From Coleofasciculus chthonoplastes F2-STO-03 (lineage in GTDB: Bacteria > Cyanobacteriota > Cyanobacteriia > Cyanobacteriales > Coleofasciculaceae), in the NCBI GenBank assembly GCA_040222015.1, contig JAVJWO010000069.1, forward strand, positions 1 through 64,000: DNA of 64,000 nucleotides, read 5' to 3'. The position numbers and the translations under genes were made by a program. The stretch's first letter is position 1. Each line of letters starts with the position of its first letter. The notes under the pieces are model-generated. The model was given only the letters and a program-made list of their open reading frames with translations. It searched no databases and had not been told where the DNA came from. Positions 9,171 through 38,384 of this stretch are shown here, in pieces.

Positions 9171-9252
9171 GAGTATCTTTGTTCTCCTAAATGATTGACT
9201 TAGTTAAGTTGTCAGGTTTATTTAATTGTCAAAAAGCCGTTTAAACTCGACC

Positions 9253-10435: not shown

Positions 10436-10680
10436 ACCTGAAGGGTAAAGATGACAGGTAAATGTTAACCAAAGCACCAAATAACCGTTATTTGGGTGGT
10501 TCTCATAATCAGCCGGAAATCTTCTCAGGTTTCTTAACGCTCCGTTTACGTTTTCCTTCTGAGAACGTGAGGGGTATCCGTGAGAACAGACCCGATGAGG
10601 TGTTAAGGTTTCACTGTCTCGACCTAATTTGTCTAGATTTATAACCCTAGACTCAACCAAGCAAAGGAGGATTTGAGTTC

Positions 10681-11199: not shown

Positions 11200-11288
11200 A
11201 ACAAGGTAAAAAAAGATTGCCTGTTGAAGTTTAAACTTCATCAACACGTTTGAAAAAGTAAGCAAAAGATTAAGGAGATATCTCGACG

Positions 11289-11777: not shown

Positions 11778-11788
11778 ATTGATCGCCT

Positions 11789-11850
11789 TGCCCGGAAAGG
11801 CAAGCAGTTGTTAGCAAAAAGGGTTAGCAATTGTTGGCGTTTCCGGGTAT
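11789..11850 (+). terminator. Stem-loop after cpcA (stability/attenuation)
   Basis: GCCCGGAAA...TTTCCGGGT inverted repeat. Confidence 0.55.
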
Positions 11851-11879
11851 CGTTTTATTCATTTTCAGGGAGGGTTGAG

Positions 11880-12701: not shown

Positions 12702-12737
12702 GATTTCAAGATTGGCGTTTAATCAGGAGAAATTTAA

Positions 12738-13607
12738 GTGGCTATTACAACAGCAGCGTCCCGATTAGGGACAGAAGCGTATAGTAATCCAACTCCGGTA
12801 GAATTGCGCCCCGATTGGGTTGAATATGATATCCAAGGGGTTATTCGTGCCGTCTACCGTCAACTGTTGGGTAATGACTATGTGATGGCGTCTGAACGCT
12901 TAATCAGTGCCGAGTCATTGCTGCGGAACGGGTATATCAACGTGCGCGAATTTGTGCGTTGTGTTGCCAAATCAGAACTTTATAAAACCAAGTTTTTCTA
13001 CGGCAGTTTTCAAACTCGTGTAATTGAACTCAATTACAAGCACATATTGGGTCGCGCACCTTATGATGAGTCTGAGGTAATTTACCACCTGGATTTGTAC
13101 GAAACCAAAGGGTACGACGCTGATATTGACTCTTACATTGATAGTGAAGAGTATCAAGAAAACTTCGGTGATTATATCGTTCCGTATTATCGCGGTTTTG
13201 CCACTCAACGGGGTCAGAAAACCGTCGGGTTTACCCGTATGTTCCAACTGTATCGCGGTTATGCCAATAGCGATCGCGCTCAGTTGGCAGGAAGTGATTC
13301 GCGTCTGGCGACTGATTTAGCACAGAATTTTGCTTCAGCCGTGGTTGGACCATCGGGTTCCAATCAAGGTTGGGCATATCGCCAGTCTGAGAAGGGTGAA
13401 ACGCCCAGTAAGGCATTAGGTGGTCCTGTCCCTTATGGCACACAAGGCAAAGTTTATCGCGTCGAAGTAGCGGGGATTATTAATCCCAGATATCCTAAAG
13501 TTCGTCGCAGCAGCAAAGCCTTCTTAGTTCCTTATGAAGAACTATCCAACAAACTCCAACAGATTAACCGTCTAGGGGGTAAAGTGGCTAGCATTACACA
13601 GGCTTAG
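12738..13607 (+). CDS. cpcC: Phycocyanin rod linker
   Basis: [20 protein letters not shown]. Confidence 0.92.
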
Positions 13608-13881
13608 TCCAAGCAGGCAGACATTGACTTCCGCTAAACAGAGGAAGATTGAACTGATCTGAACAGATCAGAGGGGACTGGGGACTGAAGAGGTTAGAAC
13701 TAGAGATAAAATAGCGGCAATTGCTGTGTTATTTCTAATCTCCTAACTCTTGAGACTCTAGTCCTCATTGGTATGTTGAGTAAGCAGACAAGTGGAAAAT
13801 TAAGCCGAATAAAGTTTATTTCCACCAACCTACTTTAATAATTACAATAGTGAAAAATACTCAAAAGGAGAATTGATTACT

Positions 13882-14121
13882 ATGCTAGGTCAAGTAGCAG
13901 CAAGCAGTGGGGCTAACAGCCCATCAGGGAGTCGTTTTTTTACCTATGAAGTCACGGGTTTGCGTCAAAATGAAACCAATGACAAAAACGAATACCCTTT
14001 TCGCAAAAGCGGCAGTGTCTTCATTAAAGTGCCTTATAATCGCATGAATGAAGAAATGCGCCGCATTACCCGCATGGGAGGAACAATTGTTAATATTCAT
14101 CCCGTGAATTCTGAAAGTTAA
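13882..14121 (+). CDS. cpcD: Rod-capping linker
   Basis: SRFFTYEVTGL, VPYNRMNEEMRRITRMGG. Confidence 0.92.
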   Translation: MLGQVAASSGANSPSGSRFFTYEVTGLRQNETNDKNEYPFRKSGSVFIKVPYNRMNEEMRRITRMGGTIVNIHPVNSES

Positions 14122-14215
14122 TTAATTGGCGGATTAAACTCAAGGCTGGTAAACGGTCAGGGGTAAGGGGGAATACTATGCTCATTATCTGTTACCGATT
14201 ACCAGCTAAGGAGAA

Positions 14216-14330
14216 ACGGGGAACAGGGAACAGGGGAGATGAGGAAGCAGGGGAAGCAGGGGAAGCAGGGGAAGCAGGGGAAGCCAACCAATGACGAATG
14301 ACGAATGACGAATGACGAATAACAAATGAC
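14216..14330. repeat. Composite STRR (GGGAACA, GGGGAAGCA, AATGACG)
   Basis: Tandem arrays running into the cpcE start. Confidence 0.9.
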
Positions 14331-15135
14331 TAACGGCGGTGAATCCTTTACAGTAGAACAAGCCCTGGCGAACCTCAAACAACGGGATGATTTAAGTCTT
14401 TGCTATTATGCGGCGTGGTGGCTGGGAAAATTTCGGATTCGAGACGCCGCCGTAATCGACGCCTTGATTGTCGCCTTAGAGGAAGAGGCAGATCGCACCG
14501 AGGCGGGCGGATATCCTCTGAAACGCAACGTCGCACGGGCGCTGGGGAAGCTAGGCGATCGCAAAGCTGTTGCGCCACTGATAAACTGTCTAGACTGTTC
14601 CGATTTCTATGTGCGAGAAGCCGCCGCGCAGTCGTTAGGGAGGTTAGGTGATCCCGTTTGTGTTCCTCAGTTAATGCAATTATTAGAGGGTGGGATAGAA
14701 GCGGGATTACCTGTACCCGGATCACCGCACTTGGCACAACCTTATAATGCAGTCATAGAAGCGTTAGGCAGTTTAGGGGCAAAAGATGCGATCGCATTAA
14801 TCGAACCCTTCCTAGAGCATAATCAAGAACGGATACAGTACGCCGCCACACGAGCGATGTATCAGTTAACCGGGAATCCCGCCTATGGCGATCGTTTAGT
14901 GCAAGCGTTAAAAGGGGAAAAGTTACAATTACGACGGGCTGTATTAGCTGATTTAGGGGCGATTGGGTACTTAAAGGCAGCGGATGCGATCGCTCAAACC
15001 TTAGCTGAAAATAGTTTAAAGCTCATTTCCCTCAAAGGGGTATTAGAGCATGAAGTAAAAAACTCCGCCAGCGAATCGGTTCAGCCTTCAGAAGCAGCCA
15101 TTCATGTGATGAAGCTGATGGATAACTTGCTGTAG
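14326..15135 (+). CDS. cpcE: Phycocyanin alpha-84 lyase subunit E
   Basis: YYAAWWLGKFR, GGYPLKRN, AENSLKLISLKG. Confidence 0.93.
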   Translation: MTNGGESFTVEQALANLKQRDDLSLCYYAAWWLGKFRIRDAAVIDALIVALEEEADRTEAGGYPLKRNVARALGKLGDRKAVAPLINCLDCSDFYVREAAAQSLGRLGDPVCVPQLMQLLEGGIEAGLPVPGSPHLAQPYNAVIEALGSLGAKDAIALIEPFLEHNQERIQYAATRAMYQLTGNPAYGDRLVQALKGEKLQLRRAVLADLGAIGYLKAADAIAQTLAENSLKLISLKGVLEHEVKNSASESVQPSEAAIHVMKLMDNLL

Positions 15136-15165
15136 CCTTGTAAATTGATTCTCGCCTTGCGAGTG

Positions 15166-15275
15166 TGACAAATGACAAATGACGAATGACAAATGACGAA
15201 TGACAAATGACAAATGACAAATGACAAATGACAAATGACAAATGACGAATGACAAATGACGAATGACAAATGACC
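15166..15275. repeat. STRR (AATGACA/AATGACG)n
   Basis: About 15 tandem heptamers overlapping the cpcF start. Confidence 0.95.
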
Positions 15276-15910
15276 AAAGCCTGATTCAAGCCGTTGAACA
15301 AGCTGATTCTGCCCCTCGCTTACTCGCCGCCGTGCGAACCCTAGCCAACGCCAAGATAGAAGCGGGGATTCCCACATTAATTGCCGTTCTCAGTTATAAC
15401 AACCCCGGTGCAGCCGTCGCTGCCGTCGATGGATTAGTGCAATTAGGAGACATAGCGGTAGAACCATTACTCAACCTGCTTGATGAATATAACTATGGAG
15501 GAAGGGCTTGGGCGATTCGAGCGTTAGCCCAACTTGCTGATCCCAGAGCCTTAGACACCTTATTGAATGCGGCTGAAACCGACTTTGCTCTAAGCGTGCG
15601 TCGTGCGGCGGCGAAGGGGTTAGGAGATATACAATGGTTAAAACTATCTCCTAAAGAGATTCCCTTAGCCCAAGGGCGAGTGCTGAAAACGTTACAGATA
15701 ACCTCTCATGATCCCGAATGGGTGGTGCGTTATGCTTCGGTGGTAGGATTGCAAGGGTTAGCCACGGCGGTAGCCGAAACCCAACCGGATTATTGGCAAC
15801 AGATTATCGCTCATTTTGAGCAACTGATGAAGGATGAGTCAGATTTAGCCGTTCGCACCCGTGTACAATTCGCCTTAGCGCAACTGCAACTGGTGCAAGA
15901 TATCAGTTAA
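15263..15910 (+). CDS. cpcF: Phycocyanin alpha-84 lyase subunit F
   Basis: YNNPGAAVAAVDGL, YNYGGRAWA, DFALSVRRAAAKGLG. Confidence 0.93.
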   Translation: MTNDQSLIQAVEQADSAPRLLAAVRTLANAKIEAGIPTLIAVLSYNNPGAAVAAVDGLVQLGDIAVEPLLNLLDEYNYGGRAWAIRALAQLADPRALDTLLNAAETDFALSVRRAAAKGLGDIQWLKLSPKEIPLAQGRVLKTLQITSHDPEWVVRYASVVGLQGLATAVAETQPDYWQQIIAHFEQLMKDESDLAVRTRVQFALAQLQLVQDIS

Positions 15911-17060: not shown

Positions 17061-17999
17061 ATGGTGGAACAAACTACGCTCCCTTTACCAGAAATCGATA
17101 ATCACGTTCCTGCGGTTAATCCTGTCTTTGCCCGCCACGAGACGTTTCATCCTCGGTTTGGCTGGCTGAAGAAGGGTTTTGACAAGGCAACTGAAGATCC
17201 AGGAATTTTTTTGAGCCAGGATGCACCTGTACGTTTGGGCGTGGGTAAGAATATGGTGCGCTCGATTCGTTACTGGTGTTCGGCGTTCAAAGTGCTGGAT
17301 AATGATACTCCCTCAGAGTTTGGCAAACAATTGTTGGCGGATAACGCTTGGGATGAGTTTTTAGAAGATCCGGCATCTCTGTGGCTACTCCATTGGCATC
17401 TCCTCACACCCACCTGCTTGGCGACGGCTTGGTATTTTGCGTTTCATGTCTTTCGTCCAGTTGAATTTTCAGCCGATGATTTATTTGAGGCGCTTTGTGA
17501 CTATAGGGATAGTCTGGGTAGTCGTATTGTTGATGCCTCACTAAAAAAAGACATCACCTGCATCTTGCGGATGTATGTAGAACCCGATACCAAGACAGGC
17601 GTAAGTGAGGATTCCATTGACTGTCCTTTTGCTGAACTCGGCATTATCCAAACCCTAGGGAACTCCAAGCACTACAGGTTTCAAATGGGTGCAAAAACTA
17701 ATCTCCCCGCCGAGGTTGTCGTTGCGGCTTGTTTGGAGTTTGCCGCGTTTAAAGGGAGTCAGAAAACCATATCGATTGCCAGTCTTACCTTTGATCCAGG
17801 TAGCCCGGGTTTGGCGTTCAAGCTGAATGAAAGTGCTGTCTGTGATGCTATCGAACAGGTTGGGCGGTTCTCAAAGGATCTCACTCTCTCTGACTCGGCG
17901 GGATTGATTCAGTTTTCCTTTAAAAAGCAGGCAAATGAGCTAGCACACGATATCCTAGACAGGTACTACAGTACTAGAAGACGCGGTGGGGCAAAGTAA
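17061..17999 (+). CDS. DUF4007 family protein (SspB-like)
   Basis: FARHETFHPRFGWLKKG, LGVGKNMVRSIRYW, LEDPASLWLLHW; stop overlaps the next start. Confidence 0.85.
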   Translation: MVEQTTLPLPEIDNHVPAVNPVFARHETFHPRFGWLKKGFDKATEDPGIFLSQDAPVRLGVGKNMVRSIRYWCSAFKVLDNDTPSEFGKQLLADNAWDEFLEDPASLWLLHWHLLTPTCLATAWYFAFHVFRPVEFSADDLFEALCDYRDSLGSRIVDASLKKDITCILRMYVEPDTKTGVSEDSIDCPFAELGIIQTLGNSKHYRFQMGAKTNLPAEVVVAACLEFAAFKGSQKTISIASLTFDPGSPGLAFKLNESAVCDAIEQVGRFSKDLTLSDSAGLIQFSFKKQANELAHDILDRYYSTRRRGGAK

Positions 18000-20900
18000 T
18001 GAAACGAGCATTATCTGACTATTTCAGCCTCAATCGGCGCTATTCTCGCTCGATTAATTTAGAGCGGGATTTGCAGCAACTCGATGCCCTGGAGGGGTAT
18101 GTTCCCACCACTCGCTCCGTTGATGCCCTCAGACGAATTTTAGCGGGTTGGCAAGACTCCCAATCCCAGCGGGCTTGGACGCTAACCAGTGTCTATGGCA
18201 CGGGGAAGTCGGCGTTTGCTCACTTTTTATCGGCTCTATGTGCCAAAGACAACGAGAAAATAAAGCAGCAGGCGCAGGAGATTGCCCGAAACGCTTTAGG
18301 CGCTGACAGTACAGAGTATTGTCGTCTCAGGGAAACGCTACCGCCGCAAGGTTTAGTCAGAGCCGTGGCTACAGCACAGCGAGAACCAATTGGTAACACG
18401 GTGATTCGGGCTTTAGCCAGAGGTATTAGGCTATTTTGGTCATCAGCAGAGAGAGAAAAAATTGCTATCGCGGGTCAACTTTTAGACTGGGAAGCAGCAA
18501 TTGCCAATGGAGAAACCGTTGACAGCCGAGGGCTTCCTCAGATGGTGCAAGAACTCGCTCAGGCGGCTCAAACGGGTGTCTTTTTAATTATCGATGAGTT
18601 AGGCAAAAATCTGGAATTTGCTGCCTATAACGAAGGGGCGGAAGATTTATATTTGTTGCAGCAGTTAACTGAACTGCCTAGAGTTGGGCATTATCCTGTG
18701 TATATACTGGGGATACTTCACCAAGCATTTACCGAGTATGGTCAGAGATTAGCCTCTGTTCAACGGAACGAATGGGCAAAGATTCAAGGGCGGTTTGAAG
18801 ATATCCCCTTTACAGAATCAGCGGGACAAATGGTGCGGTTGATGGGTCAAGTTATTGATCAATCCCAGGCAGAAAGTTTTCATTGTGCGATCAATAACCA
18901 AGCAGAGGAATGGTTAGATGAGCGCTGGAAAGATATCGCCATGGCGGAAGAACTGACGCCACAAGTTCTGGGAGCGGTGTATCCGTTACATCCTCTCTCG
19001 GCGTTAGTGTTGCCTATGCTATGCGCTAAGTATGGACAAAATGACCGCTCACTCTTTACGTTTCTCACCAGTTCTGAACCCTATTCATTTAAGAAGTTTC
19101 TAGATGAAACAACGGTGCAGGGTGAACCATTGCCCACCCTGAAATTGGATCGGGTTTATGATTACTTCGTTGAAGCCACCGGATTGGGTTTAGGTTCTCG
19201 ATTGGGTTTGCAACGGTGGGTAGAGATTCAGAATTTAATTGCCGATGCCAAACATCTGGATACGGATTCTCTCAGAGTTTTAAAGACAATTGGCTTGCTT
19301 AACTTAGTAACAACAACAGGTGCGGTGAAAGCCACTCACGAACTGGTGACGTTGGCAATGTGCGATTCACCTTATGAGGAACAAGATCAGCAGTATTGGG
19401 ATGATATTATTGATCGTTTATTACGACGAAATGTGATTACCCATCGTCGGTTGCTGGATGAACTGCGGCTTTGGGAAGGCTCTGATTTTAATGTCGAGGG
19501 CGAAGTGGCGGCGTTGATTGAGCAAGAGCGATCGCCTCTGTTTAGTCTTTTGTCACAAACCTATCCCCTGAAGCCATTAGTGGCTGGGCGGCATAGTTAT
19601 AAAACGGGTACGTTGCGGTATTTTGAGCGCCGCTATGTTAATGCAACACAGGATTTAGCGCAACTGCTTTGTGAGAGTAAAGATAGTGATGGATTAATTG
19701 CTTGTTGGGTGGATGAGGAATTACCGAGTCAACCCCCAGCTTTGACAGCCGATGGGAAGCCGTTAATTGTTTTGTGTGCCAAAAAACTGGGTATCCTGCG
19801 AATTAGGGCGCTAGAATTTGCCGCACTTGATAAAATCCAGAGTAGTGCGGCTCAACTCCAGACGGATGCTGTGGCGAGACGGGAAGTCCAATATCGGTTA
19901 TTTGAGACGAAACGATTGCTTGATGAAAGTTTGAGCAGGTCCTTTGATGTAGCCGTTAATCAGAATGTTTGTTGGATTCAGGGGGAACCAGAAACCATCA
20001 GCCACGCGACAGAGTTTAATGCTAAGTTATCAGAGGTTTGTGACAGGGTTTATCTAAAAACGCCGATTCTTTGGAATGAGTTGATTAATCGCCGCGAACT
20101 GACATCTCAAGGCGCTAAGGCGAGACGGGAACTGATTGAGGCGATGTTGGAAAATGCCGAGGTAGAAAGATTAGGATTAGAAGGGTATGGTCCAGAAGTC
20201 GCCATGTATTATTCCCTGCTAGGTGAGACAGGAATTCATCGACAGGAGGAGGACGGTTGGGGATTCTATCCACCGGATAAAAACTCCAATGTATGGACGG
20301 TTTGGCAGGCAATTGAAGCGTTTCAAAAAGCTGCTAACGATAAACAAAAGCCGTTAGACAAACTCTACCAACAATTAGAAGCACCACCATTCGGCGTCAA
20401 GCAAGGGTCGATTCCGGTGCTGTTAGCGGCAGTTTTGCTGTATCATACCGATGATGTCGGGATTTATAAAGATGGGACATTTATCCCGATTTTGGGTTCA
20501 GAACATTTTGAGCTATTGGTGAAAGATCCCTCCCGCTTTGCGGTTAAATATTTTGAAGTCGTGGGGTTGCGATCGCGAGTCTTTCAGGAACTCGAAGCGG
20601 TGTTGAAATCGCCTCAGTCTCGAATGCCTACGGGAGTCAGGAATGTAACTCTGTTGGCGGTGGCTAAACCGCTATTTCAGTTTGTGAAAAAGCTACCTGC
20701 GTACACGCTGAAAACCAAGCGCCTCAGTTCAGAAGCACAAGCGGTTTTACAAACCTTGAAGCAAGCCCAGGAACCCGATGTATTACTGTTTAAATCCTTA
20801 CCTGAAGCTTGCGGATTGCCAGCCATTGGTACGAATGAAGTTGACGATGGTAAGACAGCGAAAACCTTACGGAAAAAGTTAGTGCAAGCGCTGCACGAGA

Positions 20901-21514
20901 TTCAGACGGCTTATGACTGCTTACTGAGTGACTGTAAATCACGATTGCACGATGCCTTTGGGATTAGCAGCAATGAAGCTAAATTGCGGGAAGATTTAAG
21001 AGTGCGAGCCAGTCGTCTAGCGGGACAATGCGTTGAGAGTATGCTGAAACGTTTCATCGGAGCGGCAGTTGATGAAACCAAAACAGATACCGAATGGTTA
21101 GAAGCCCTAGTGATGATTGTGGCAGATAAGCCGGCTGAGTCTTGGAGTGATGAAGATATGACTCAGTTTGAAATTAACCTCTCAGATGTGGCTAGGCGGT
21201 TCAAGAATTTGGAAGCGTTGCGGGCAGACGTTGATGCCAAAGGTGGGGGATTTGAGGCACTTAGAATCACAGTAACTCGTCAGAATGGACAAGAAATTAA
21301 TCAAATTGTGGGAATTGATTACGACTTACAGACCCAAGCAGAGGAACTGGTAGAAAATATGCAGAAAACGCTGCCTAATAATAACACACAACTGCGGCAA
21401 TTTGCCATTTCCCTACTGGTGGAGAGAGAGTTTGATTTAGCGTCGGAAATATTGCCTCAAATTGGGGATGGGCGTCAAAATCGAGGGGACGGGCAAAAAC
21501 AAGATTATGCCTAG
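17999..21514 (+). CDS. Large P-loop ATPase (SspC/BrxC-like)
   Basis: RYSRSINLERD, Walker A VYGTGKS, Walker B LIIDELGK, EWAKIQGRF, YPLHP, QNDRSLFTFL. Confidence 0.8.
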   Translation: MKRALSDYFSLNRRYSRSINLERDLQQLDALEGYVPTTRSVDALRRILAGWQDSQSQRAWTLTSVYGTGKSAFAHFLSALCAKDNEKIKQQAQEIARNALGADSTEYCRLRETLPPQGLVRAVATAQREPIGNTVIRALARGIRLFWSSAEREKIAIAGQLLDWEAAIANGETVDSRGLPQMVQELAQAAQTGVFLIIDELGKNLEFAAYNEGAEDLYLLQQLTELPRVGHYPVYILGILHQAFTEYGQRLASVQRNEWAKIQGRFEDIPFTESAGQMVRLMGQVIDQSQAESFHCAINNQAEEWLDERWKDIAMAEELTPQVLGAVYPLHPLSALVLPMLCAKYGQNDRSLFTFLTSSEPYSFKKFLDETTVQGEPLPTLKLDRVYDYFVEATGLGLGSRLGLQRWVEIQNLIADAKHLDTDSLRVLKTIGLLNLVTTTGAVKATHELVTLAMCDSPYEEQDQQYWDDIIDRLLRRNVITHRRLLDELRLWEGSDFNVEGEVAALIEQERSPLFSLLSQTYPLKPLVAGRHSYKTGTLRYFERRYVNATQDLAQLLCESKDSDGLIACWVDEELPSQPPALTADGKPLIVLCAKKLGILRIRALEFAALDKIQSSAAQLQTDAVARREVQYRLFETKRLLDESLSRSFDVAVNQNVCWIQGEPETISHATEFNAKLSEVCDRVYLKTPILWNELINRRELTSQGAKARRELIEAMLENAEVERLGLEGYGPEVAMYYSLLGETGIHRQEEDGWGFYPPDKNSNVWTVWQAIEAFQKAANDKQKPLDKLYQQLEAPPFGVKQGSIPVLLAAVLLYHTDDVGIYKDGTFIPILGSEHFELLVKDPSRFAVKYFEVVGLRSRVFQELEAVLKSPQSRMPTGVRNVTLLAVAKPLFQFVKKLPAYTLKTKRLSSEAQAVLQTLKQAQEPDVLLFKSLPEACGLPAIGTNEVDDGKTAKTLRKKLVQALHEIQTAYDCLLSDCKSRLHDAFGISSNEAKLREDLRVRASRLAGQCVESMLKRFIGAAVDETKTDTEWLEALVMIVADKPAESWSDEDMTQFEINLSDVARRFKNLEALRADVDAKGGGFEALRITVTRQNGQEINQIVGIDYDLQTQAEELVENMQKTLPNNNTQLRQFAISLLVEREFDLASEILPQIGDGRQNRGDGQKQDYA

Positions 21515-21577
21515 CTTGTCGTTTATCATCCGATAATAATTGTCAACATAAGGGAACAGCAGGCAAGGATTAGTGCT

Positions 21578-22180
21578 ATGACTACAGTAACAACTCCAGT
21601 AGAAAATTCTCCGTTGGTGTTGCACCTGCATCCAGTTATTAATCTGACCGATGAGCAGTTTTTTGAGTTCTGTCAAATTAATCGCGACTTGCGAATTGAA
21701 CGCACGGCGACAGGAGAATTACTAATTATGCCTCCCACGGGTTCGGAAACAGGTGGACGAAATTTTAGGCTGAATGGACAATTGTACAATTGGACGGAAC
21801 AGAATGGGACTGGTGTTGGCTTTGACTCCAGCACTGGCTTTACACTTCCCAATGGTGCAAAGGTTTCCCCTGATGCGGCTTGGGTAAAATTAGAACGGTG
21901 GAAGACTTTAACCCCTGAACAGCAGCAAACCTTTGCTCCCATCTGTCCTGATTTTGTGGTGGAATTGCGATCAGTTTCTGATAATTTGATATTGCTCAAA
22001 ACCAAGATGCAGGAGTACATTGATAATGGTGCGTTGTTAGGTTGGCTGATTGACCGCAAAAAACGACAGGTTTATATTTATCGCTCAGGAGTAGCGGTAG
22101 AATGTTTGGATAATCCGGCAACTGTAAGTGGTGAGTCGGTATTACCCGGATTTGTGCTGGATTTAAGCAAAATCTGGTGA
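21578..22180 (+). CDS. Uma2-family endonuclease-like protein, copy 1
   Basis: FDSSTGF.LPNGA..SPDAAW, CPDFVVELRS. Confidence 0.9.
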   Translation: MTTVTTPVENSPLVLHLHPVINLTDEQFFEFCQINRDLRIERTATGELLIMPPTGSETGGRNFRLNGQLYNWTEQNGTGVGFDSSTGFTLPNGAKVSPDAAWVKLERWKTLTPEQQQTFAPICPDFVVELRSVSDNLILLKTKMQEYIDNGALLGWLIDRKKRQVYIYRSGVAVECLDNPATVSGESVLPGFVLDLSKIW

Positions 22181-22235
22181 GGGTAGCTAGGGAGGGTGCT
22201 GTACTATTTCACAACAGCCACCAAGGATTTGTGCC

Positions 22236-22844
22236 ATGACAATGACTGAAGCAACGACTCAAGTAGAAAATTCTCCGTTGGTGTTGCACCTGCATCCAGT
22301 TATTAATCTTACCGATGAGCAGTTTTTTGAGTTCTGCCAAATTAATCGCGACTTACGCATTGAACGCACGGCTACGGGAGAATTGCTAATTATGTCCCCC
22401 ACCGGATCAGACACAGGAAATCGCAATGCTAAGTTGATTGTACAGTTGGGAGTTTGGGCAGAGCGTGACGGAACGGGGATTTATTTCGATTCGAGTACAG
22501 GCTTTACGCTTCCCAATGGTGCAAAGGTTTCCCCTGATGCGGCTTGGGTGAAATTGGAACGGTGGAACGCCCTGACTCCTGAACAACAGAACACGTTTGC
22601 TCCCATCTGTCCTGATTTTGTGGTGGAACTGCGATCAGTTTCTGATAATTTGGCACCGCTCAAAACTAAGATGCAGGAGTACATTGATAATGGTGCGCTG
22701 TTAGGTTGGCTGATTGACCGCAAAAAGCGACGGGTTTATATCTATCGCTCAGGAGTAGCGGTGGAATGTCTAGATAATCCAGCTACGATTAGCGGTGAGT
22801 CGGTATTACCCGGATTTGTGCTGGATTTAAGCAAAATCTGGTGA
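22236..22844 (+). CDS. Uma2-family endonuclease-like protein, copy 2
   Basis: Near-identical to copy 1 except one central segment. Confidence 0.9.
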   Translation: MTMTEATTQVENSPLVLHLHPVINLTDEQFFEFCQINRDLRIERTATGELLIMSPTGSDTGNRNAKLIVQLGVWAERDGTGIYFDSSTGFTLPNGAKVSPDAAWVKLERWNALTPEQQNTFAPICPDFVVELRSVSDNLAPLKTKMQEYIDNGALLGWLIDRKKRRVYIYRSGVAVECLDNPATISGESVLPGFVLDLSKIW

Positions 22845-22862
22845 ATTTCCAGGGTGCGATCG

Positions 22863-23089
22863 TAGAAGCAAGGATTTCCACATTATAGCAACCGCCATAG
22901 CCCATAGCGGTTAGGACACATTATTTATGTAGAGACCAAACATGGACGGTCTCTACAATGGTGACGAAAGTCCTAATCGATGTGTCTACTGCTATAATTG
23001 CTGTCCTCAGTTATAACAACCCAGGTGCAGCCGTCGCCACCATAGATAGATTAGTGCAATTAGGAGACATGGCGGTAGAACTATTGCTC
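22863..23089 (+). pseudogene. Duplicated cpcF fragment interrupted by a MITE
   Basis: Matches cpcF 15357-15472 (CAGTTATAACAACCC.GGTGCAGCCGTCGC...TTAGTGCAATTAGGAGACAT). Confidence 0.85.
22884..22996. mobile_element. MITE with TATAGCA...TGCTATA ends and an internal GTAGAGAC hairpin
   Basis: Inserted at a TA that is single in cpcF (CACATTAATTG) and duplicated here; other copies at 30545-30617 and 46542-46625. Confidence 0.85.
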
Positions 23090-23292
23090 TTTGGAGCAAC
23101 TGCAACCGGAGATGGCAGAAGCTGGGTAGGCAATCGGTTCTTAGCACCACTCGCTGTCTTCCCGTCCTTGGTTCCAACCCAAGGAACCAAAAGCTCAAGT
23201 CAGCTAATTTTCCATGGGAGGAGTATGAGTCTTGGCAAATCGACAGTAACTAGGTTACAACTGATTAAGACATCTACCAACAACAGGACTGT

Positions 23293-23709
23293 ATGGAACC
23301 CACTTCACTGACAGCTACTGCAATTGCTACTCTAGCTTTTACAAAGTTTTTTGAAACTTCTGTTGAGAAATTTACAGAAGCAACCCTTAGTAAAATAGAT
23401 CATTTACGCCAGAAGCTCTGGGACAAGTTTCGGGGAAACGTTAAAGCTGAAACTGCTCTTAATGCAGCAGAGAACGGTTCAAAACCAGATTTAGACCGGG
23501 TTGTTGCAGAATTGCAGATAGCTCTTGATGACGATGAAGCTTTTGCCAAAGAAGTTCAAACGCTTGCCCAAGAGATTATTCGTATTGGTGAAGTTCAAAG
23601 TGAAAATGTTTGGCATGTTTCAGGGGGAGAAGTCAATTACTCTAAAGATAATAAAGCACCAGTGATTCAAGGTGGCAGTGGTCATAGTATCACATTTACT
23701 ACTATTTGA
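23293..23709 (+). CDS. Small helical protein (Bell-domain-like) with a G/N/V-rich C-terminal tail
   Basis: MEPTSLTATAIATLAF N-terminal helix, DDEAFAKEV..LA, tail VSGGEVNYSKDNKAPVIQGGSGHSITF. Confidence 0.65.
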   Translation: MEPTSLTATAIATLAFTKFFETSVEKFTEATLSKIDHLRQKLWDKFRGNVKAETALNAAENGSKPDLDRVVAELQIALDDDEAFAKEVQTLAQEIIRIGEVQSENVWHVSGGEVNYSKDNKAPVIQGGSGHSITFTTI

Positions 23710-24123
23710 CTGCAGCCATCCAACCAAGGGGCGAAGTTCAAACCAAATCTAGATAGCTTTGGCGGTCTCATTGAGTGGATTAAAGTAAAATCTAATAACC
23801 TAGGCTTACAGGAACTAAATTCTCCTCTGAGAAATCGGCTTTTAAAAGCTGTAGATAATGTTCGGAAAGAAAAGTTAGATTTTGAAGATTCTGAAATCGA
23901 TCTTCTTGAATTAGTTGTTCATTACAGTTTTTACTGTCTTGAAGAACGTTACTCACCTAAGTTTGGTAGAATACAAAAGAAAGACTACTATTATCGAGTG
24001 CAACAGTTACTTGATGCAAAAAAAACTATAAGATCTACCGAGATACTTTTGAGTTCGCTTATTAACGAATCAAAAATGTCTAAATTAGTAAAAAAAATAG
24101 AATGTATTAATGAGCTTAAATGA
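23710..24123 (+). other. 137-codon open frame, in frame after the TGA of the previous ORF, with no early start codon
   Basis: Hand translation LQPSNQGAKFKPNLDSFGGLIEWIK...INELK* has no stop in AT-rich DNA; its end overlaps the next ATG. Confidence 0.6.
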
Positions 24124-25714
24124 ATTCAAGGGACAGCGCAGTCCAACTATAATTAGAGAATATTTTGAGTTGCTTAGATGGAAAAATAAAGGGTGTCCAT
24201 TAGAGTTATCTCATGAACGTATAGAATCTGATGAAATATTATTGTCAATTAAACAAGGACAAAAATCTCATGAAACCTTAATAAGCTATACTATTAATTC
24301 AATAAAATCTGTCAGAACTGAAATATTATCAGATCAAGAACAGATAGAATCAGTTGAAAAAGAAATTTATTCTTTAATTAAATCAATTTTTTCCTTAAGA
24401 GAATCCTTATTGTCGTTATCATCAAAAAGATATACTGAAGAAAAGTTTTCATCAGGAGATTACTCAAAAATACCTGATCTATCTTTGCGAAAAATCCTTA
24501 TTTATTTGCTAAAGCAGGTTTTAGCAGATATAAAACAAGCTTTCTTATATATAATTAACTACTATCTAGAAAAACCTATTATAACAGCTATAACATTAAT
24601 ATTGGTTATTCCCATTTCGTTATTTTTGAGTTGGAAATTTAATAGCTTTTCAACTATTAGTTTACTGGTTATTGCATTGGTATATTTTTTGAAAAAAATA
24701 AATTATATTCATAAAAGGCATCAGCGAACCGGGAAAGAACATTTGGCTAAAGTTGAAATAGATCGGCAACAAAAATTAAAACAAGAGTTTGAGAATCGTA
24801 TTCAGGAAGAACGAAAGAAAATAGAGACATCTTTACAAGAGTTTGAGGTACGCTTACAAGAACGTAGAATAGATTCTCAAATACTTAGAGAACGTAAACA
24901 AACACTTGAAGCGTACTTGTTACAGAAGGAACAAAAACTTACTGAACTTGAACAAGTACGTCAACAAAAGTTGGATGAATATCAACAAAAAATTGATGAA
25001 TTAGTCGGGCAAGAGAAAAGCCGTAGAAATGAGTACCTATTCAATCTAGAAAAACAAGTTCAAAAATGGCTGGATCACGATATAGAACGCCTTACTGATA
25101 AAGGCATGAAAAAATTAAAGATAATTAGCGATGGTAACTATGATCAAGTTAATGTTTTACAAAATGAACCAATTAGGGTAGTTATTGGTATTACCGAAAA
25201 AACTAAAAGCTTTGAAAATATTCTTGTTGATAGTGATGTTAACCTTTTCATGGAATCTTCTGAAAGTAAAGAAATATATATAGATCAAAATGATTTTGAA
25301 AGTGAAAAAAGTTTTGATGAAAAGAGTAAAAAATACGGAGTATATGGGTTTGTAGTTATATTCCTATGTGCGAATTTTTTTAGTTATTATAAATGTTATT
25401 ATAATTTTATAAGAGGCAGATCTGTAGATGAAGAAATTGCTGAATATATGTATGATAGTATTGTTTCTATAAAAATCCAAGAAAAATCTTCTGTAAGATT
25501 AAAAAATGAACAGCAAAAGAATGTATATAGGAAACGATTATTGATCACAACAAATGACGGAAAAGTTGTATGCTTTAATTTATCAAGAAATAGGGGAGAA
25601 AAAAATTATTCTATACGTTTTTATCAGATCGAAGAAGCAGCCATAGCTATTCGAGATATGTTAAGGCAAAGACGCATAGATAAAACATTGACTGAAGATT
25701 TAGATCTAACCTAG
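24110..25714 (+). CDS. Hypothetical membrane/coiled-coil protein
   Basis: Two hydrophobic helices, long E/Q/K coiled coil, globular C-domain; very AT-rich. Confidence 0.75.
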   Translation: MSLNEFKGQRSPTIIREYFELLRWKNKGCPLELSHERIESDEILLSIKQGQKSHETLISYTINSIKSVRTEILSDQEQIESVEKEIYSLIKSIFSLRESLLSLSSKRYTEEKFSSGDYSKIPDLSLRKILIYLLKQVLADIKQAFLYIINYYLEKPIITAITLILVIPISLFLSWKFNSFSTISLLVIALVYFLKKINYIHKRHQRTGKEHLAKVEIDRQQKLKQEFENRIQEERKKIETSLQEFEVRLQERRIDSQILRERKQTLEAYLLQKEQKLTELEQVRQQKLDEYQQKIDELVGQEKSRRNEYLFNLEKQVQKWLDHDIERLTDKGMKKLKIISDGNYDQVNVLQNEPIRVVIGITEKTKSFENILVDSDVNLFMESSESKEIYIDQNDFESEKSFDEKSKKYGVYGFVVIFLCANFFSYYKCYYNFIRGRSVDEEIAEYMYDSIVSIKIQEKSSVRLKNEQQKNVYRKRLLITTNDGKVVCFNLSRNRGEKNYSIRFYQIEEAAIAIRDMLRQRRIDKTLTEDLDLT

Positions 25715-25750
25715 GAATGGAAATTAAATAATATTCAGTCTTGGGTATCA

Positions 25751-25872
25751 CTATCGTCCAGGAGTAGCGGTGGAATGTTTAGATAATCCCGCAACAGTAA
25801 GTGGCGATCCGGTATTATCCGGATTTGTGTTGGATTTAAGCAAAATCTGGTGAATTTCCAGGGTGCGATCGC
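25751..25872 (+). repeat. Direct repeat of the Uma2 3' end plus downstream HIP1 site
   Basis: Matches 22742-22862 (..GATTTAAGCAAAATCTGGTGAATTTCCAGGGTGCGATCG). Confidence 0.9.
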
Positions 25873-25883
25873 GAACAGATTTC

Positions 25884-26231
25884 TCAAGTTCTCAATTTTA
25901 AAACTGACAATCTTTGTTGAAAGATAGTATCGAGTCGAGAAAACGCTGCTTCTGTATATCGATAAGCTTCCTGAAGAATGCTTTGCCAAAGGGAATTAAG
26001 AGCTTGCAAGTTTGGGCAAAAGCGTATCAAAGTACTACAAGCAGCAATCCATTGTTCGAGTTGGCGGTAACTAATAAAATAACCACCGAGTCCCTGGATA
26101 TGCACCCAGAGGACGTTATACCATTTTTGCCAATTCAGGATACGCTCTGGCTTGATTTTCAAGTATTTAGCAATTTGGCGGAGAGTAATGACAAAAGTTT
26201 TGGGGTTGATGCGATGACGTAGCGGTTGCAT
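25884..26231 (-). CDS. Hypothetical protein (cyanobacterial)
   Basis: 115-aa ATG ORF, W..VLWVHI.G.GG.FISYR. Confidence 0.65.
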   Translation of the reverse strand: MQPLRHRINPKTFVITLRQIAKYLKIKPERILNWQKWYNVLWVHIQGLGGYFISYRQLEQWIAACSTLIRFCPNLQALNSLWQSILQEAYRYTEAAFSRLDTIFQQRLSVLKLRT

Positions 26232-26359
26232 AGTTATTAAAGATTTTTCAGGTTTGCTGTGTAAGAATCCTTAGCCAAAATTCCTGGCTTCCCCCCAAAA
26301 TGGGGGGACTTAAACGAGTTTCTCAGGGGTTTAACTCACCTGAGAAAGCCAGAATCACC

Positions 26360-26572
26360 TTAGACATCAGACTTGTTAACCAGAATTTTCTCAACCACAG
26401 GATCGAAGATTAGCTCGAATACTGCTGCTGGAATGAAACGCCGCAACAGCCTGAGAGAGTCATCCGCGTCTTGACGATTGTAGTAACGGGCGACAACGCA
26501 ACGCTGAAACTTGGGCAAAATCCGAACAACCGCCCAAGGGCAATCCTGTAGATGGCTTGAACGTTCTATCAT
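26360..26572 (-). CDS. Small hypothetical protein (70 aa)
   Basis: CPWAVVRILP..QR.VVARY.NRQDAD..LR.LRR.IP...FELIFD; RBS AAGGAG upstream of ATG at 26572. Confidence 0.7.
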   Translation of the reverse strand: MIERSSHLQDCPWAVVRILPKFQRCVVARYYNRQDADDSLRLLRRFIPAAVFELIFDPVVEKILVNKSDV

Positions 26573-26733
26573 GGTTGAAGGTCTCCTTTTCAATACGGAA
26601 TGGAACCCAAAAGGCAGCGACGATCTGTAGGAGGTGAAGCGCTGCCTTTTATCTTGCAAGCCCTGCATTCAGGGGAATCGGGCTTTGTATCAGGGTCGAA
26701 ACCCTGAGCAGTATAGTTATCATATATGCTAAT
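26573..26733 (-). promoter_or_regulatory. Structured 5' leader/ncRNA with three hairpins, -10 box and operator-like palindrome
   Basis: TATACT (26710-15); TCAGGGT-TTCG-ACCCTGA; AAGCCC..GGGCTT; AAAAGGCAGCG..CGCTGCCTTTT with CACCTCCT in the loop. Confidence 0.6.
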
Positions 26734-26803
26734 CATTTATCTGTAAAGTGTTATTATTAAAGTAAACAAATCTAACTTACGCTTTTTTGACGTAATCAAA
26801 CCT

Positions 26804-28210
26804 ATGGGACAGGCAGGCAAAGCACTTCGACACGTACTAGAAACATACGGCATCAGTCAAAGCAGTCTGGCAAGTGCATTGGGAGTTGACCGCCCTGTGG
26901 TATTTCGCTGGTTCCATGAACAAACCGATCCGACTGCTGAGACTGTCGCCAGTATTGTCAGAGTGCTTCGAGAACTCAATCCAACCGCCGCCAAGGACTT
27001 TATCCAGTTTTATCTAGTTGACCCAACTCAGGCTGGAGAAATGGATCTAATGGCTACTCCCATCCAGGAATTGCCCAAATCTGACACAGTAGATGTGTCG
27101 GCACTCTCTAGGCTATTAAAAAAAAAGACAAATTCCTATAAATATCTTTTTTTAATTTCAATTTTGGATATTGTACAAAGGCGACAGTTTGATGTTTTAT
27201 CACCAATTAGTTTCCCAGAAATCATCATTGAAATGCTGGCGAATGCTTGGTATCCACATACTTATTTCAAGCTATCTTTTGGTTTACAAGATAAAATATC
27301 GGATAAATTAGACTCTCTTTGTATTGACATTTCGGATACAAAAATAATTTTTAACGATACAGACAAAAAATACTTGCGGAGAATAATTAGCGCTCAACCC
27401 ATAGAATATATTGTTTCAAGTCTGAAACGATATGTACCATTTCTCTTGATCCGACCATTTTTTGAACAAGAAATAAAAGCAAGCAAGGCGGGTAGAAAAA
27501 AGCGAACGAATCCGGGTGATGACGAACAAGAAATTGTCAACCTAGCCGCTGCACTATTTGATAGTAAAAAACCGTTATACCGCTTTGATACGAGTCTCTA
27601 TAAGGATTGCAGTTCGATCACGTTACATCCAGCATGGGTATCATACCTAGAAAATAACTATTTAATCGTTCGGGCTTGGGCATCTTGGGAATGGCTCAAG
27701 TATATGCAGCAACGTAACCCTAATGTGCCTGCTATTGCGAACAAGCTATTCCCACCTCAAGAAAGAGGTTCTCTGAATCATCAAAAAGCTTACTGGAAAT
27801 TGATTTTAAAACAAACTAATCTACAGTGCATTTACTCCAAGCGAACTCTGCCTTCTTCCGGTTTTTCCCTGGATCATTATTTGCCTTGGTCATTTGTCGC
27901 TCACGATCAGCCTTGGAACTTAATCCCAACGTTTCCAGAGGTGAATTCATCAAAATCCAATTATCTCCCTAATGAGGAATACTTTGATGAATTTGTGAAT
28001 CTACAGCATTTAGGGCTTTCTATAGCAAATAAAAGCCTGGGACAAACCCAATGGAGTAACTATATTGAACCTTACCTAACTGACTTAAAAATTGGGGATA
28101 AAAATAATATTCTGGATTTACATATTCTTAAAGCTGCTTATGAATCTACTCTTAGTCCTTTACTGTCTATAGCTACAAGGCAAGGGTTTGCTAGATGGTC
28201 TTACAGATAA
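26804..28210 (+). CDS. XRE-HTH fused to an HNH endonuclease
   Basis: N-terminal ISQSSLASALGVDRPVVFRW HTH; C-terminal CIYS...DHYLPWS...WNLIP...VNSSKSN. Confidence 0.85.
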   Translation: MGQAGKALRHVLETYGISQSSLASALGVDRPVVFRWFHEQTDPTAETVASIVRVLRELNPTAAKDFIQFYLVDPTQAGEMDLMATPIQELPKSDTVDVSALSRLLKKKTNSYKYLFLISILDIVQRRQFDVLSPISFPEIIIEMLANAWYPHTYFKLSFGLQDKISDKLDSLCIDISDTKIIFNDTDKKYLRRIISAQPIEYIVSSLKRYVPFLLIRPFFEQEIKASKAGRKKRTNPGDDEQEIVNLAAALFDSKKPLYRFDTSLYKDCSSITLHPAWVSYLENNYLIVRAWASWEWLKYMQQRNPNVPAIANKLFPPQERGSLNHQKAYWKLILKQTNLQCIYSKRTLPSSGFSLDHYLPWSFVAHDQPWNLIPTFPEVNSSKSNYLPNEEYFDEFVNLQHLGLSIANKSLGQTQWSNYIEPYLTDLKIGDKNNILDLHILKAAYESTLSPLLSIATRQGFARWSYR

Positions 28211-28303
28211 TCATGTCTAAGCAATAAAAAAAGCCGATGAAACTGAAGGAGGAATCTTAAATGAATAACTTTAAACTGGAGTTTAGACTACGATGGTGAT
28301 AAG

Positions 28304-28379
28304 AGGACACGGCAATGCCGTGTCCCTACCACAGCTTAGGGATAATTGATTGGGTAGGGGCACGATATTATCGTGCCCT
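28304..28379. repeat. Pair of REP-like palindromes
   Basis: GGACACGGCAATGCCGTGTCCCTAC and GTAGGGGCACGATATTATCGTGCCCT. Confidence 0.75.
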
Positions 28380-28427
28380 GATCTAGTTTCCTCCCAGGTT
28401 CCCAGGCATCATTTATCATGGGTTAGT

Positions 28428-28961
28428 CTAAACACCAGCAAAATTACGGATATTTTTCAGCACAAAGCCGCTATCTTCTTTAACTAAATCTCCTGTACAG
28501 ACAATAGGCAGCCGTTCTTGATAGGCTTTTATAGCAAGAATGTACTCATGGTTAAACAACTCCATCTGAATTTCCCGAAGTTGATCACATACTACACCCA
28601 AAATCACAATCGTTCCGCTTAATTGGTCAGCATTAGGAGCATGAATTTGCCTAACGAATCCCGGAATATTTATATTATGGGCTTTAGTAATAAGTTCGCT
28701 AATAATCTCAAGTTGAGAACGATTTTCTATTGTTTCCAGTGTTTCCAAAATAACACTCATAGAAACTGGAAAACCCGGTATGTCCTGATTCAGGGGTAAC
28801 AGAATAGTTACCGACTCTCCTGACTTATTTGCTTGCATCCAAATTGAGGCTTTATCCTGCAAATGGTTCTGTTTATGCCAACCGTGATTTTGCAAGTAGT
28901 TGGCTACTTGTTGAGGTTGGATTGATTGCAGAATATTGATATCCTTTACAGTAACATTCAT
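28428..28961 (-). CDS. Hypothetical protein coupled to the DUF4365 gene
   Basis: VANYLQNHGW N-domain and OB-like C-terminus (Y.LAIKAY....I.C.G.L); ATG overlaps the upstream stop. Confidence 0.7.
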   Translation of the reverse strand: MNVTVKDINILQSIQPQQVANYLQNHGWHKQNHLQDKASIWMQANKSGESVTILLPLNQDIPGFPVSMSVILETLETIENRSQLEIISELITKAHNINIPGFVRQIHAPNADQLSGTIVILGVVCDQLREIQMELFNHEYILAIKAYQERLPIVCTGDLVKEDSGFVLKNIRNFAGV

Positions 28962-29299
28962 AGAGCTTCTCCTCTGGCGATACATTGCATAAGACTTGTT
29001 AGGGAATTCACCGTAAATCTATTTACTCTAGGAATAGATACAGTTACAGTTTCCTGATTCTCTGTCGATGTTTCTCCAGCTAGGGATATCCAGTAACCAC
29101 AACGTTTAAGACAGAGTTCCTCTTCTGATTGATATAACCAGTCATTAATGTTATCAGGTACTACAACAACCACGAGGATTAGAGGTGGATATTGCTGGGG
29201 AACTCTCAGTTCTTCATAATTCTTAACTTTGAGTGGATACTTCAGATAATTCTTATCTAGAATTGCTCTTGAAGTACATTTGAGTTTGTTAATATTCAC
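28958..29299 (-). pseudogene. DUF4365-like protein, N-terminally truncated
   Basis: KLKCTS..YPLKVKNY..LR, P.ILVVV.VP, L..CGYWISL; the N-terminal catalytic half is absent. Confidence 0.6.
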
Positions 29300-29338
29300 C
29301 CTGATTAAACCTTCTACCCAGTTATCGCAAATTAAATC

Positions 29339-30532
29339 ATGCCCCTATCCCAGCAGTCTAGCCAATCCCGCCCCATATACCTCGACTACCACTCCACCAC
29401 TCCCACTGACCCCAGAGTGGCAAATCAAATGCTACACTACATGACTACCGCCTTTGGTAACGCTAGCAGCATTGACCACACCTATGGGGATGAAGCCGAA
29501 CAAGCCGTCTCCCAAGCCGCAACTCATATCGCTAACTTAATCAGTTCATCCGCCAAACAAATTATCTTCACCTCTGGAGCAACCGAAAGCATTAACCTCG
29601 CCCTGCAAGGATTCGTCAGATTCTACCATAGTAATACCTCAAAAATCCCCCGCTTTGCTGTCTCCCCAGTGGAACATAAAGCCGTTTTAGACACCTGCAA
29701 TACCCTCGCAAAAAAAGGATTCGCCGAAATTATTAATCTCCAGGTTGACTCCAAAGGTAGACTCGACTTTGATTATCTAGAAAATGTCTGTAAAAACGGC
29801 ATTTCCTTGCTGTGTGTTATGGCAGCCAATAACGAAATTGGCACAATTTATCCAATATCAAAAATAGGACAAATTGCCCAAACTTACAGAATTCCTTTCC
29901 TCTGTGATGCATCCCAATCTGTCGGCAAAATCCCGATCAATTTTCAAGACTGGGGGATAACATACCTCGCCATCTCCGCCCATAAACTCTATGGACCAAA
30001 AGGTTCCGGCGCATTAGTGGTGCGAAAAAAATATCCCCTAGAACCGATTCTCTGGGGTGGGGGTCATCAAAAAGGTATGCGATCGGGTACGCTTAATGTT
30101 CCGGGTATTGTCGGTTTAGGCGAAGCCTGTCGCCTGCGTCAGTTAGAAATGACCGAAGATGAAACCGCGATCGCATCCTCTAGAGACAAACTCCAAACCC
30201 TGTTGCAAGACAGCATTCCCGGCGTTGTTATTAATGGCGATACCACGAACCGCCTTGCTGGGAATCTGCATATTTCCATTCCCGATATTCCCAATAGTGC
30301 AGTGATTGCCAGAATCCGTTCCCAACTCGCCATCTCCACAGGTTCCGCCTGTACGTCGGGGGTAGAAACACCCTCTCATGTGCTGCGATCAATCAAGTTA
30401 TCAGATAATTTAATAGAGGGGGCATTGCGTATCGGTTTGGGCAAATTTACCACAGATACAGAAATTAGTCAAGCCGCTGAAATTTTGTCAACAGCCGTTA
30501 GCAAAATTCGTCAAGCTATTGATGGAAATTAA
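29339..30532 (+). CDS. Cysteine desulfurase (IscS/DndA/SspA-like)
   Basis: IYLDYHSTTP, FTSGATES, SAHKLYGPKG, STGSACTSG. Confidence 0.92.
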   Translation: MPLSQQSSQSRPIYLDYHSTTPTDPRVANQMLHYMTTAFGNASSIDHTYGDEAEQAVSQAATHIANLISSSAKQIIFTSGATESINLALQGFVRFYHSNTSKIPRFAVSPVEHKAVLDTCNTLAKKGFAEIINLQVDSKGRLDFDYLENVCKNGISLLCVMAANNEIGTIYPISKIGQIAQTYRIPFLCDASQSVGKIPINFQDWGITYLAISAHKLYGPKGSGALVVRKKYPLEPILWGGGHQKGMRSGTLNVPGIVGLGEACRLRQLEMTEDETAIASSRDKLQTLLQDSIPGVVINGDTTNRLAGNLHISIPDIPNSAVIARIRSQLAISTGSACTSGVETPSHVLRSIKLSDNLIEGALRIGLGKFTTDTEISQAAEILSTAVSKIRQAIDGN

Positions 30533-38383: not shown

Positions 38384-38384
38384 T

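Follow-up and report, generated by a model that had tools for sequence, protein, structure and literature searches.

An HNH nuclease in the sspD slot of a cyanobacterial ssp locus: a candidate reader of the phosphorothioate mark

Why does a locus that lacks one gene of a phosphorothioate (PT) writer keep the others intact, and what does the nuclease that stands in the place of the missing gene do there? The question is raised by a stretch of 64,000 nucleotides, referred to here as the window (positions 1 to 64,000 of contig JAVJWO010000069.1), from the filamentous cyanobacterium Coleofasciculus chthonoplastes F2-STO-03, whose closest named SspC relatives are Coleofasciculus records (92-95%). 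On its plus strand, sspB, an intact gene for a DUF4007 protein of 312 residues (17061-17999; Pfam E 5e-100; PADLOC SspB E 6.5e-121), overlaps at position 17999 the start of sspC, which encodes an intact AAA+ ATPase of 1171 residues (17999-21514; 1560 bits against PADLOC SspC; Walker motifs A and B at residues 64 and 196), and the cysteine desulfurase gene sspA, intact here (29339-30532), begins on the same strand 7.8 kb beyond the end of sspC. Between them lies a nuclease gene of 468 codons (26804-28210, plus strand; HTH_3, HNH_4). A first-pass annotation had described the coupled DUF4007 and ATPase genes, the desulfurase some 8 kb on, a helix-turn-helix (HTH)-HNH gene, two Uma2 genes and a DUF4365 pair, as well as the absence of the SGGKDS motif and of DUF262 genes from the window, and all of this holds. 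The locus is a cyanobacterial Ssp PT locus of the form sspB-sspC-[exchangeable cassette]-sspA in a writer-off state: the slot that holds sspD and effectors in relatives holds here an autonomous HTH-winged helix-HNH nuclease, which is conserved with or without sspB and sspC. The further proposal, that this nuclease represents a new PT-dependent type IV restriction family directed at the Ssp mark and trading places with the Ssp writer, stands in even balance.

The first step is whether the locus could write PT. The source genome (G000) is a 7.7 Mb draft in 219 contigs, 99.99% complete, and the genome-wide search for sspD and sspE that the first-pass annotation had advised (PADLOC, PF01507, protein queries and tblastn) returned neither gene. 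No SspD was found in this draft with PF01507, an SspD protein search or a motif scan; the two PF01507 matches are a CysH-type protein and a 539-residue DndC on contig C184, the latter being the only open reading frame (ORF) in the genome with SGGKDS. A weak SspD-like match on C204 turned out to be GMP synthase, so the suggested supply of SspD in trans has no candidate. SspE, SspF and SspG gave no tblastn match in the genome and SspH only a partial C-terminal one, on C169, while the four DUF262 matches, all of 370-399 residues, lie on other contigs. Without sspD, sspE, sspF and sspG in the genome, the locus therefore cannot write PT by itself. Additionally, tblastn of the genome found no PglZ, no BrxL and no fusion of PAPS (3'-phosphoadenosine-5'-phosphosulfate) reductase with DUF4007, and the combination of BrxP, PglZ and BrxL by which bacteriophage exclusion (BREX) type 4 is recognised does not occur in it.

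A separate dnd cluster is located on C184, with dndC and dndD intact and dndB frameshifted (L003:4653-6153; 280 residues and an 88-residue tail in another frame); this contig has no dndA and carries a second DGQHR gene on the opposite strand. A homologue of the 'DNA phosphorothioation-associated putative methyltransferase' is present in two pieces (G000 C31:12550-13989), and the same gene flanks plasmid ssp loci (L134, L137). In a quick IQ-TREE of 48 proteins, the window desulfurase falls in one clade with 28 ssp-locus desulfurases (Shimodaira-Hasegawa-like approximate likelihood ratio test, 100), a clade that includes none of the five further paralogues from this genome placed in the tree. 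The grouping with housekeeping IscS that had been named as a danger is thus not what the tree gives, and from its placement the enzyme is a true SspA, distinct from the housekeeping IscS, NifS and SufS. Its orthologue is broken in three of the four sspD-less congeners (G402, G404, G407), all of which retain dndC, and sspA thereby behaves like a gene deprived of its partner. A role as DndA for the dnd cluster on C184 was considered and set aside: it is possible in G000 and unneeded in the congeners, where the gene is broken and dndC intact.

Where sspD went becomes visible in the neighbourhoods of SspB and SspC homologues, whose comparison, also advised by the first-pass annotation, revealed a swap of sspD for the HNH cassette. 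Cyanobacterial ssp loci share the frame sspB-sspC-[sspD]-[variable cassette]-sspA, in which the slot is filled by a cassette of the SspE, SspFGH, BREX-like, DGQHR or helicase-HATPase-PLD kind. At the orthologous site of the congener G401 (contig C41), an intact sspD (PADLOC SspD E 2e-113) occupies the place of the nuclease, accompanied by a 227-residue ORF and a DGQHR gene; the orthology is borne out by cpcE, cpcF, Uma2 genes, DUF4365 pairs, the same kinase and a desulfurase 94% identical. The earlier alternative of a displaced sspD with sspB, sspC and the desulfurase left intact is accordingly the correct one, and G401 demonstrates it directly. In G401, sspB and sspC are deleted except for a 68-bp sspC remnant, 98.5% identical to the window sspC, which shows that a window-like sspC recently shared its site with sspD. 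The two sequences part immediately after the stop codon of the final Uma2 gene; in the window, this point is marked by a GCGATCGC palindrome (25865-25872), known as HIP1. A second swap sets sspBCD-sspE-BREX-sspA on contig C52 of G401 against sspB-sspC-HNH-sspA in G403 and G405. The Uma2 genes and the DUF4365 pair, once listed as possible effectors, are passengers, because they flank sspD and HNH haplotypes alike, and the DUF4365 gene of the window is 5'-deleted relative to that of G401.

The relation between nuclease and writer was followed in a phylum set of 401 genomes, of which 42 matched DUF4007 and 26 the nuclease; SspD, SspC and DndC were searched for in 59 genomes, and a second set of 44 family-level genomes was searched after the idea had formed. 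The pooled count comprises 41 genomes with full-length sspB. It omits G121, whose nuclease is truncated, the BrxP-type G118, G134 and G172, and genomes whose DUF4007 matches are all fragments or of the second type; the contig-limited G019 and G406 were entered as not intact. Intact sspBCD is present in 2 of 21 genomes with the nuclease versus 16 of 20 without it (Fisher p 6e-6, inflated by kinship). Among seven independent pairs on well-supported branches, an average of 5.1 differed as predicted, none in the opposite direction and 1.9 tied. In the family-level set, SspD occurs in none of the six new genomes with the nuclease and in all four nuclease-free genomes with full sspB, one of the four having a broken sspC. 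Furthermore, the two states are interleaved on the SspC tree, with 12-13 changes and clustering no stronger than in shuffles, which points to repeated switching and not to a single sspD-free lineage. Of the 59 genomes, 44 had dndC above the cut-off, whether or not they carried the nuclease.

Even side by side, the two seldom both survive. Loci that carry sspD next to the nuclease show a broken sspD in L012, G173, G044, G032 and L168 and a broken sspC in G077, G181, G213 and L147, three of the latter at a poly-C tract, and SspFGH or BREX-like cassettes persist at several loci with a broken writer and the nuclease (L018, L033, L069, L151, L220). The tract lies in an inserted loop of sspC near residue 750 and reads C8, in frame, in G279 and L013 and C9, frameshifted, in G181, G213 and G077; the loci concerned are L016:10740-11150, L018:7980-8220, L019:11710-12130, L028:7440-7660 and L013. 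Phase variation of the PT writer is a lead only, because the tract is not limited to loci with the nuclease (C8 in L013).

These counts bear on the reading in which PT activates the nuclease as an SspE-like partner of SspABCD that lies idle in writer-less loci such as this one. Although its place inside ssp operons, its presence in G059 and G279 alongside an intact sspBCD and the self/non-self role proposed by Rakesh et al. (PMC10853773) for winged HTH (wHTH)-SAD-HNH proteins in dnd neighbourhoods would all suit such a partner, the association with intact sspBCD should then be positive and is the opposite, and idle copies should decay, whereas writer-less copies are under purifying selection. 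This reading is accordingly very improbable. The first-pass idea of a working sulfur system with the HNH protein as its effector lacks support, given that no SspD was found in the genome and that sspA is broken in three of the four sspD-less congeners; the nuclease resembles an opponent of the Ssp writer, not a partner.

How far the nuclease stands on its own can be judged from its other copies. The family counts 1721 representatives at 50% identity (E up to 0.001) and has no NCBIfam or PADLOC name beyond HNH. Solo copies show ratios of nonsynonymous to synonymous substitution (dN/dS) of 0.15-0.23, and a copy remains open in G129, a genome in which searches returned neither SspD nor DndC; the enzyme therefore needs neither sspB and sspC nor host PT for protection, and this independence argues against the classical restriction half of a restriction-modification pair. 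Among the best 80 metagenome loci, 23 extend over at least 10 kb, and 16 of these carry PT-linked genes, namely ssp/BREX/sspA (12) and dnd (4); two of them probably repeat genome loci, and the dnd-linked copies are distant homologues with 34-40% identity. Of the 16 plasmid matches, 11 come from cyanobacteria, and four of these 11 represent one and the same Synechocystis plasmid. Plasmid pSYSM of Synechocystis PCC 6803 lacks sspD and carries sspB, a truncated sspC, a LAGLIDADG gene, the nuclease (SGL_RS00075) and sspA, which makes the idea testable in a model strain; a Leptolyngbya plasmid shares the layout of the window, and the copies in Allochromatium and Sinorhizobium have no PT genes nearby. 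A reverse-strand LAGLIDADG ORF, absent from the window, stands just upstream of the nuclease in seven loci (L033, L038, L062, L068, L134, L157, L220), in six of them after a 3'-shortened sspC, and may mobilise the cassette.

Such autonomy would also fit a stand-alone nuclease whose winged helix reads a signal other than PT, such as a base modification or a phage structure, and whose insertion into ssp defence hot spots physically removes sspD and leaves the orphaned writer to decay under relaxed selection. The insertion-with-deletion look of the LAGLIDADG loci, the generic winged-helix fold without a match to the family hidden Markov models (HMMs) of the sulfur-binding domain (SBD) and the two genomes that retain both genes intact point the same way. 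It leaves unexplained, however, the position of the family beside dnd clusters, the point lesions in sspD or sspC where both genes are present and the retention of sspBCD (16 of 20) at loci with other cassettes. On balance it is rather unlikely, though the most serious of the rivals.

What the nuclease might read is suggested by its domains. An XRE-type HTH is followed by a 229-residue middle domain (residues 88-316) and a Cas9-like HNH domain, which aligns to the Cas9 HNH domain and retains the catalytic-motif residues D357, H358, N381 and N386; a sequence search of the PDB returned only Cas9-type HNH and HTH domains, and the ESM Atlas gave unnamed clusters alone. The middle domain is modelled as a winged helix (predicted local distance difference test 95, predicted template modelling score 0.92). 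In a comparison with 48,161 chains, its top match was Cdc6 (Z 7.2, root-mean-square deviation (rmsd) 3.2, 111 aligned), and ORC2 reached Z 6.4, while five of the top 11 rows were SBD entries: the SBD of Hga matched with Z 7.0 (rmsd 3.4, 121/146 aligned), that of ScoMcrA in three entries with Z 5.8-6.0 (one of them Z 5.9, rmsd 3.4, 128/158) and that of SprMcrA with Z 5.3 (rmsd 3.6, 130/169). The sulfur cavity described in sections of PMC10602919 and PMC7461809 combines H/K or H/R on helix A2 with L/Y-P on helix A4. Among 134 homologues of the nuclease, Y112 and K113 are conserved in 133, V211 in 127 and P212 in 113. Y112-K113 begin the matching helix and are aligned to HK by hhalign, and SprMcrA and cyanobacterial NF045808-like proteins likewise have Y at the first motif position; the candidate second motif is either R-Y-V211-P212-F from the topology (compare RYPFWAL in ScoMcrA) or Y150-P151 from hhalign with relaxed gap penalties. 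Y112-K113 and V211-P212 resemble the published HR/HK and YP pocket motifs and, with Y150-P151 as the alternative to V211-P212, may belong to a sulfur pocket.

Several further observations concern this domain. Substitutions in the pocket give no clean account of the exceptional genomes, P212S of G059 being found also in the writer-less G163 and G044. A predicted complex of SspB with the nuclease scored 0.00, which is evidence neither way. ORFs of 219-231 residues consist of the winged-helix domain without HNH (L017, L070, L073, L074); that of L070 continues past stop codons, and the other three may be natural reader-only forms. Finally, NF045808-like SBD-HNH genes, below the cut-off, lie within about 2 kb of an intact dndC in L081, L088, L096, L100 and L102, counter to their usual exclusion from dnd clusters; G000 is without such a gene.

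The other half of the question is why sspB and sspC persist. Among the four sspD-less congeners, dN/dS is 0.07-0.15 for sspB and 0.13-0.20 for sspC (synonymous divergence, dS, 0.14-0.22), and both genes are conserved at the level of their neighbours. Across sspB, sspC and the nuclease the values span 0.07-0.31, so that the dead locus with relaxed selection considered in the first-pass annotation is not simply what is seen. A neutral gene of 3.5 kb would be expected to be broken at a dS of about 0.2, and purifying selection on sspB and sspC without sspD is incompletely explained.

One answer would be that SspB and SspC serve the nuclease as a sensing or translocating module that does without SspD, or that they work with DndC in trans. 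In keeping with it are these dN/dS values, the sspD-less order sspB-sspC-HNH-sspA with intact sspC in G403, G163, G327, G445, L137, L151 and L160, and an intact DndC in nearly all genomes of that layout. Yet many loci with an intact nuclease have a truncated or missing sspC or sspB (G002, G299, G295, G074, G129, G359, G405, G415, G412, G261, G127, G251), the sspD-less state forms no clade, and sspA is broken in three of the four congeners, which together render the module improbable.

The type IV reading, of a nuclease opposed to the Ssp writer, offers a different answer. The winged-helix domain would be a divergent SBD that binds Ssp-type single-strand PT sites, and the HNH domain would cut near the bound site. 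Phage or plasmid DNA arriving from Ssp-positive cells would be restricted, while unmodified DNA and the Dnd-type PT of the host would be tolerated. The nuclease would be harmful in a cell with its own active SspBCD, which is the proposed reason why sspD or sspC has repeatedly been lost, truncated or frameshifted next to it, and the XRE-HTH probably limits its expression. By recombination in shared flanks, sspD and HNH cassettes may be exchanged among haplotypes, and the conservation of sspB and sspC would follow from this swapping, as in pneumococcal DpnI/DpnII. Exchange can account for that conservation in view of the G401 remnant, the discordant SspC and HNH trees of the four congeners (four-taxon signals 91/16/21 vs 18/41/4) and the sspD-bearing G424, which nests among nuclease-bearing relatives on the SspC tree. 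The more specific form, a balanced writer-or-killer switch at cyanobacterial ssp loci, with a nuclease that reads single-strand Ssp PT and tolerates Dnd-type PT, is possible but somewhat doubtful; its routes would be cassette exchange, poly-C frameshifts in sspC and possibly LAGLIDADG-driven spread.

A number of results weigh against this. The Z values of the fold are middling (5-7) and do not prove a function, and the winged helices of Cdc6 and ORC equal the SBDs (Z 7.2). Foldseek gave no match at E 0.001 for the whole protein or the domain, NF045808 matches none of 134 members and nothing in G000, and PF26340 is listed for none of 120 homologues, whereas a search with a canonical SBD-HNH protein has it listed for all 120. 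By default, hhalign against SBD profiles reached only E 0.03; E 5.7e-5 was obtained with relaxed gap penalties, under which the controls were not run and the second motif moves to Y150-P151, and the SBD match was no better with insertion columns removed. The sign test on the seven independent pairs is borderline (median p 0.0625, range 0.016-0.25). G059 and G279 hold intact sspBCD together with an intact nuclease, and the contig-limited L172 and L141 perhaps do so too. An inserting cassette that physically replaces sspD yields part of the pattern even if the nuclease is not toxic. Additionally, all four sspD-less congeners, as well as G445 and G441, retain sspB and sspC in intact and conserved form, and within the genus no haplotype was seen that joins a window-like intact sspB and sspC to sspD.

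The remaining features of the locus, which sits downstream of cpcE/cpcF, concern the flanks of the exchange. Two tandem Uma2 genes (21578-22844, plus strand), common to sspD and HNH haplotypes and among 21 Uma2-like ORFs of the genome, are a likely crossover zone. They are followed by a low-GC insertion (22863-25750, plus strand; guanine-cytosine content 0.30-0.35), absent from the relatives L009 and L010 by blastn, which contains a cpcF fragment, a 138-residue ORF with about 137 further open codons in frame past its stop and a 534-residue ORF for a coiled-coil protein of an unnamed cyanobacterial family; an ESM Atlas search returned unnamed clusters only. A repeat of the Uma2 3' end then follows (25751-25872, plus strand), terminating in the palindrome. 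Two small divergent ORFs of 115 and 102 residues (25884-26668, minus strand) precede the nuclease, and homologues of the 102-residue ORF lie upstream of many of its relatives. Beyond the nuclease, a PDC-M02B-like ORF and the 5'-deleted, PDC-M02A-like DUF4365 gene (28428-29299, minus strand) occur on both haplotypes; in congeners, tandem copies of the PDC-M02-like DUF4365 pair precede sspA (L130:14485-17430; L126:7834-9336), with a short B subunit of 180-190 residues that lacks the middle of the PADLOC model. Elsewhere in the window, two divergent phycobiliprotein operons with lyases and linkers (7498-15910), ordinary in themselves, served as a synteny anchor, and a type II restriction-modification pair of a Dam-like methyltransferase and an endonuclease (37580-39512; guanine-cytosine content about 0.36) adjoins a HerA gene (39597-41312).

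No account of the nuclease family or of the swap was found in the literature covered, which did not extend to subscription papers or to the supplementary tables of PMC10853773, PMC12839542 and PMC12914056, where the family may be listed. If the type IV reading is true, a family aimed at the Ssp mark extends the modification arms race to single-strand PT, supplies a reagent for mapping Ssp sites, accounts for many broken-looking cyanobacterial ssp loci and amounts to a DpnI/DpnII-style either/or cassette for a backbone modification. Where sspB and sspC occur without sspD, the locus should not be annotated as a working system, nor should it be written off as mere debris.

Compared with known systems, the locus is closest in gene order to SspABCD-SspE and SspABCD-SspFGH (Xiong 2020; Wang 2021, as cited in portions of PMC12914056, PMC10853773 and PMC12707154), with orthologues of sspB, sspC and sspA in the usual order, but its slot holds a nuclease anticorrelated with the writer, and sspD, sspE, sspF and sspG are missing from the genome. 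With BREX type 4 (BrxP, BrxC, PglZ, BrxL) it shares homologues of DUF4007, of a BrxC-like ATPase and of the desulfurase, but not PglZ, BrxL or the PAPS-reductase-DUF4007 fusion. Co-occurrence of dndCD and sspBCD in cyanobacteria including Coleofasciculus is reported in parts of PMC12914056, and HNH effectors near BREX in parts of PMC12839542.

The PT-dependent type IV nucleases of the SBD-HNH kind (ScoMcrA, SprMcrA, EcoWI, Hga; NF045808, PF26340) share with the window nuclease a C-terminal HNH and scarcity beside a working writer and may resemble it in the winged helix, which superposes on SBDs at middling Z, and in the candidate pocket motifs; excerpts of PMC7461809 place fewer than 3.6% of SBD-HNH homologues near dnd clusters, and those of PMC10853773 describe the SBD as a winged helix, with wHTH-SAD-HNH proteins in dnd neighbourhoods. 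The window nuclease differs in that its sequence does not place it in the family, its winged-helix domain is longer by about 80 residues, its nuclease domain is HNH_4/Cas9-like in place of HNH_2, it has an N-terminal XRE-HTH and it is tied to ssp loci; the characterised enzymes in the literature covered act on Dnd-type sites. Comparable in logic are the Dpn cassettes of Streptococcus pneumoniae, where DpnI, DpnII and DpnIII are alternatives at one locus (PMC12707154, in part): here too, alternative cassettes share a site, one writing a mark and the other predicted to cut marked DNA. The ssp mark is, however, a backbone sulfur and not methyladenine, the other subunits of the writer stay in the flanks, and the cutting of marked DNA is only predicted for the ssp-locus nuclease. 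An Ssp locus, an SBD-like HNH nuclease and an either/or cassette are each of a known kind.

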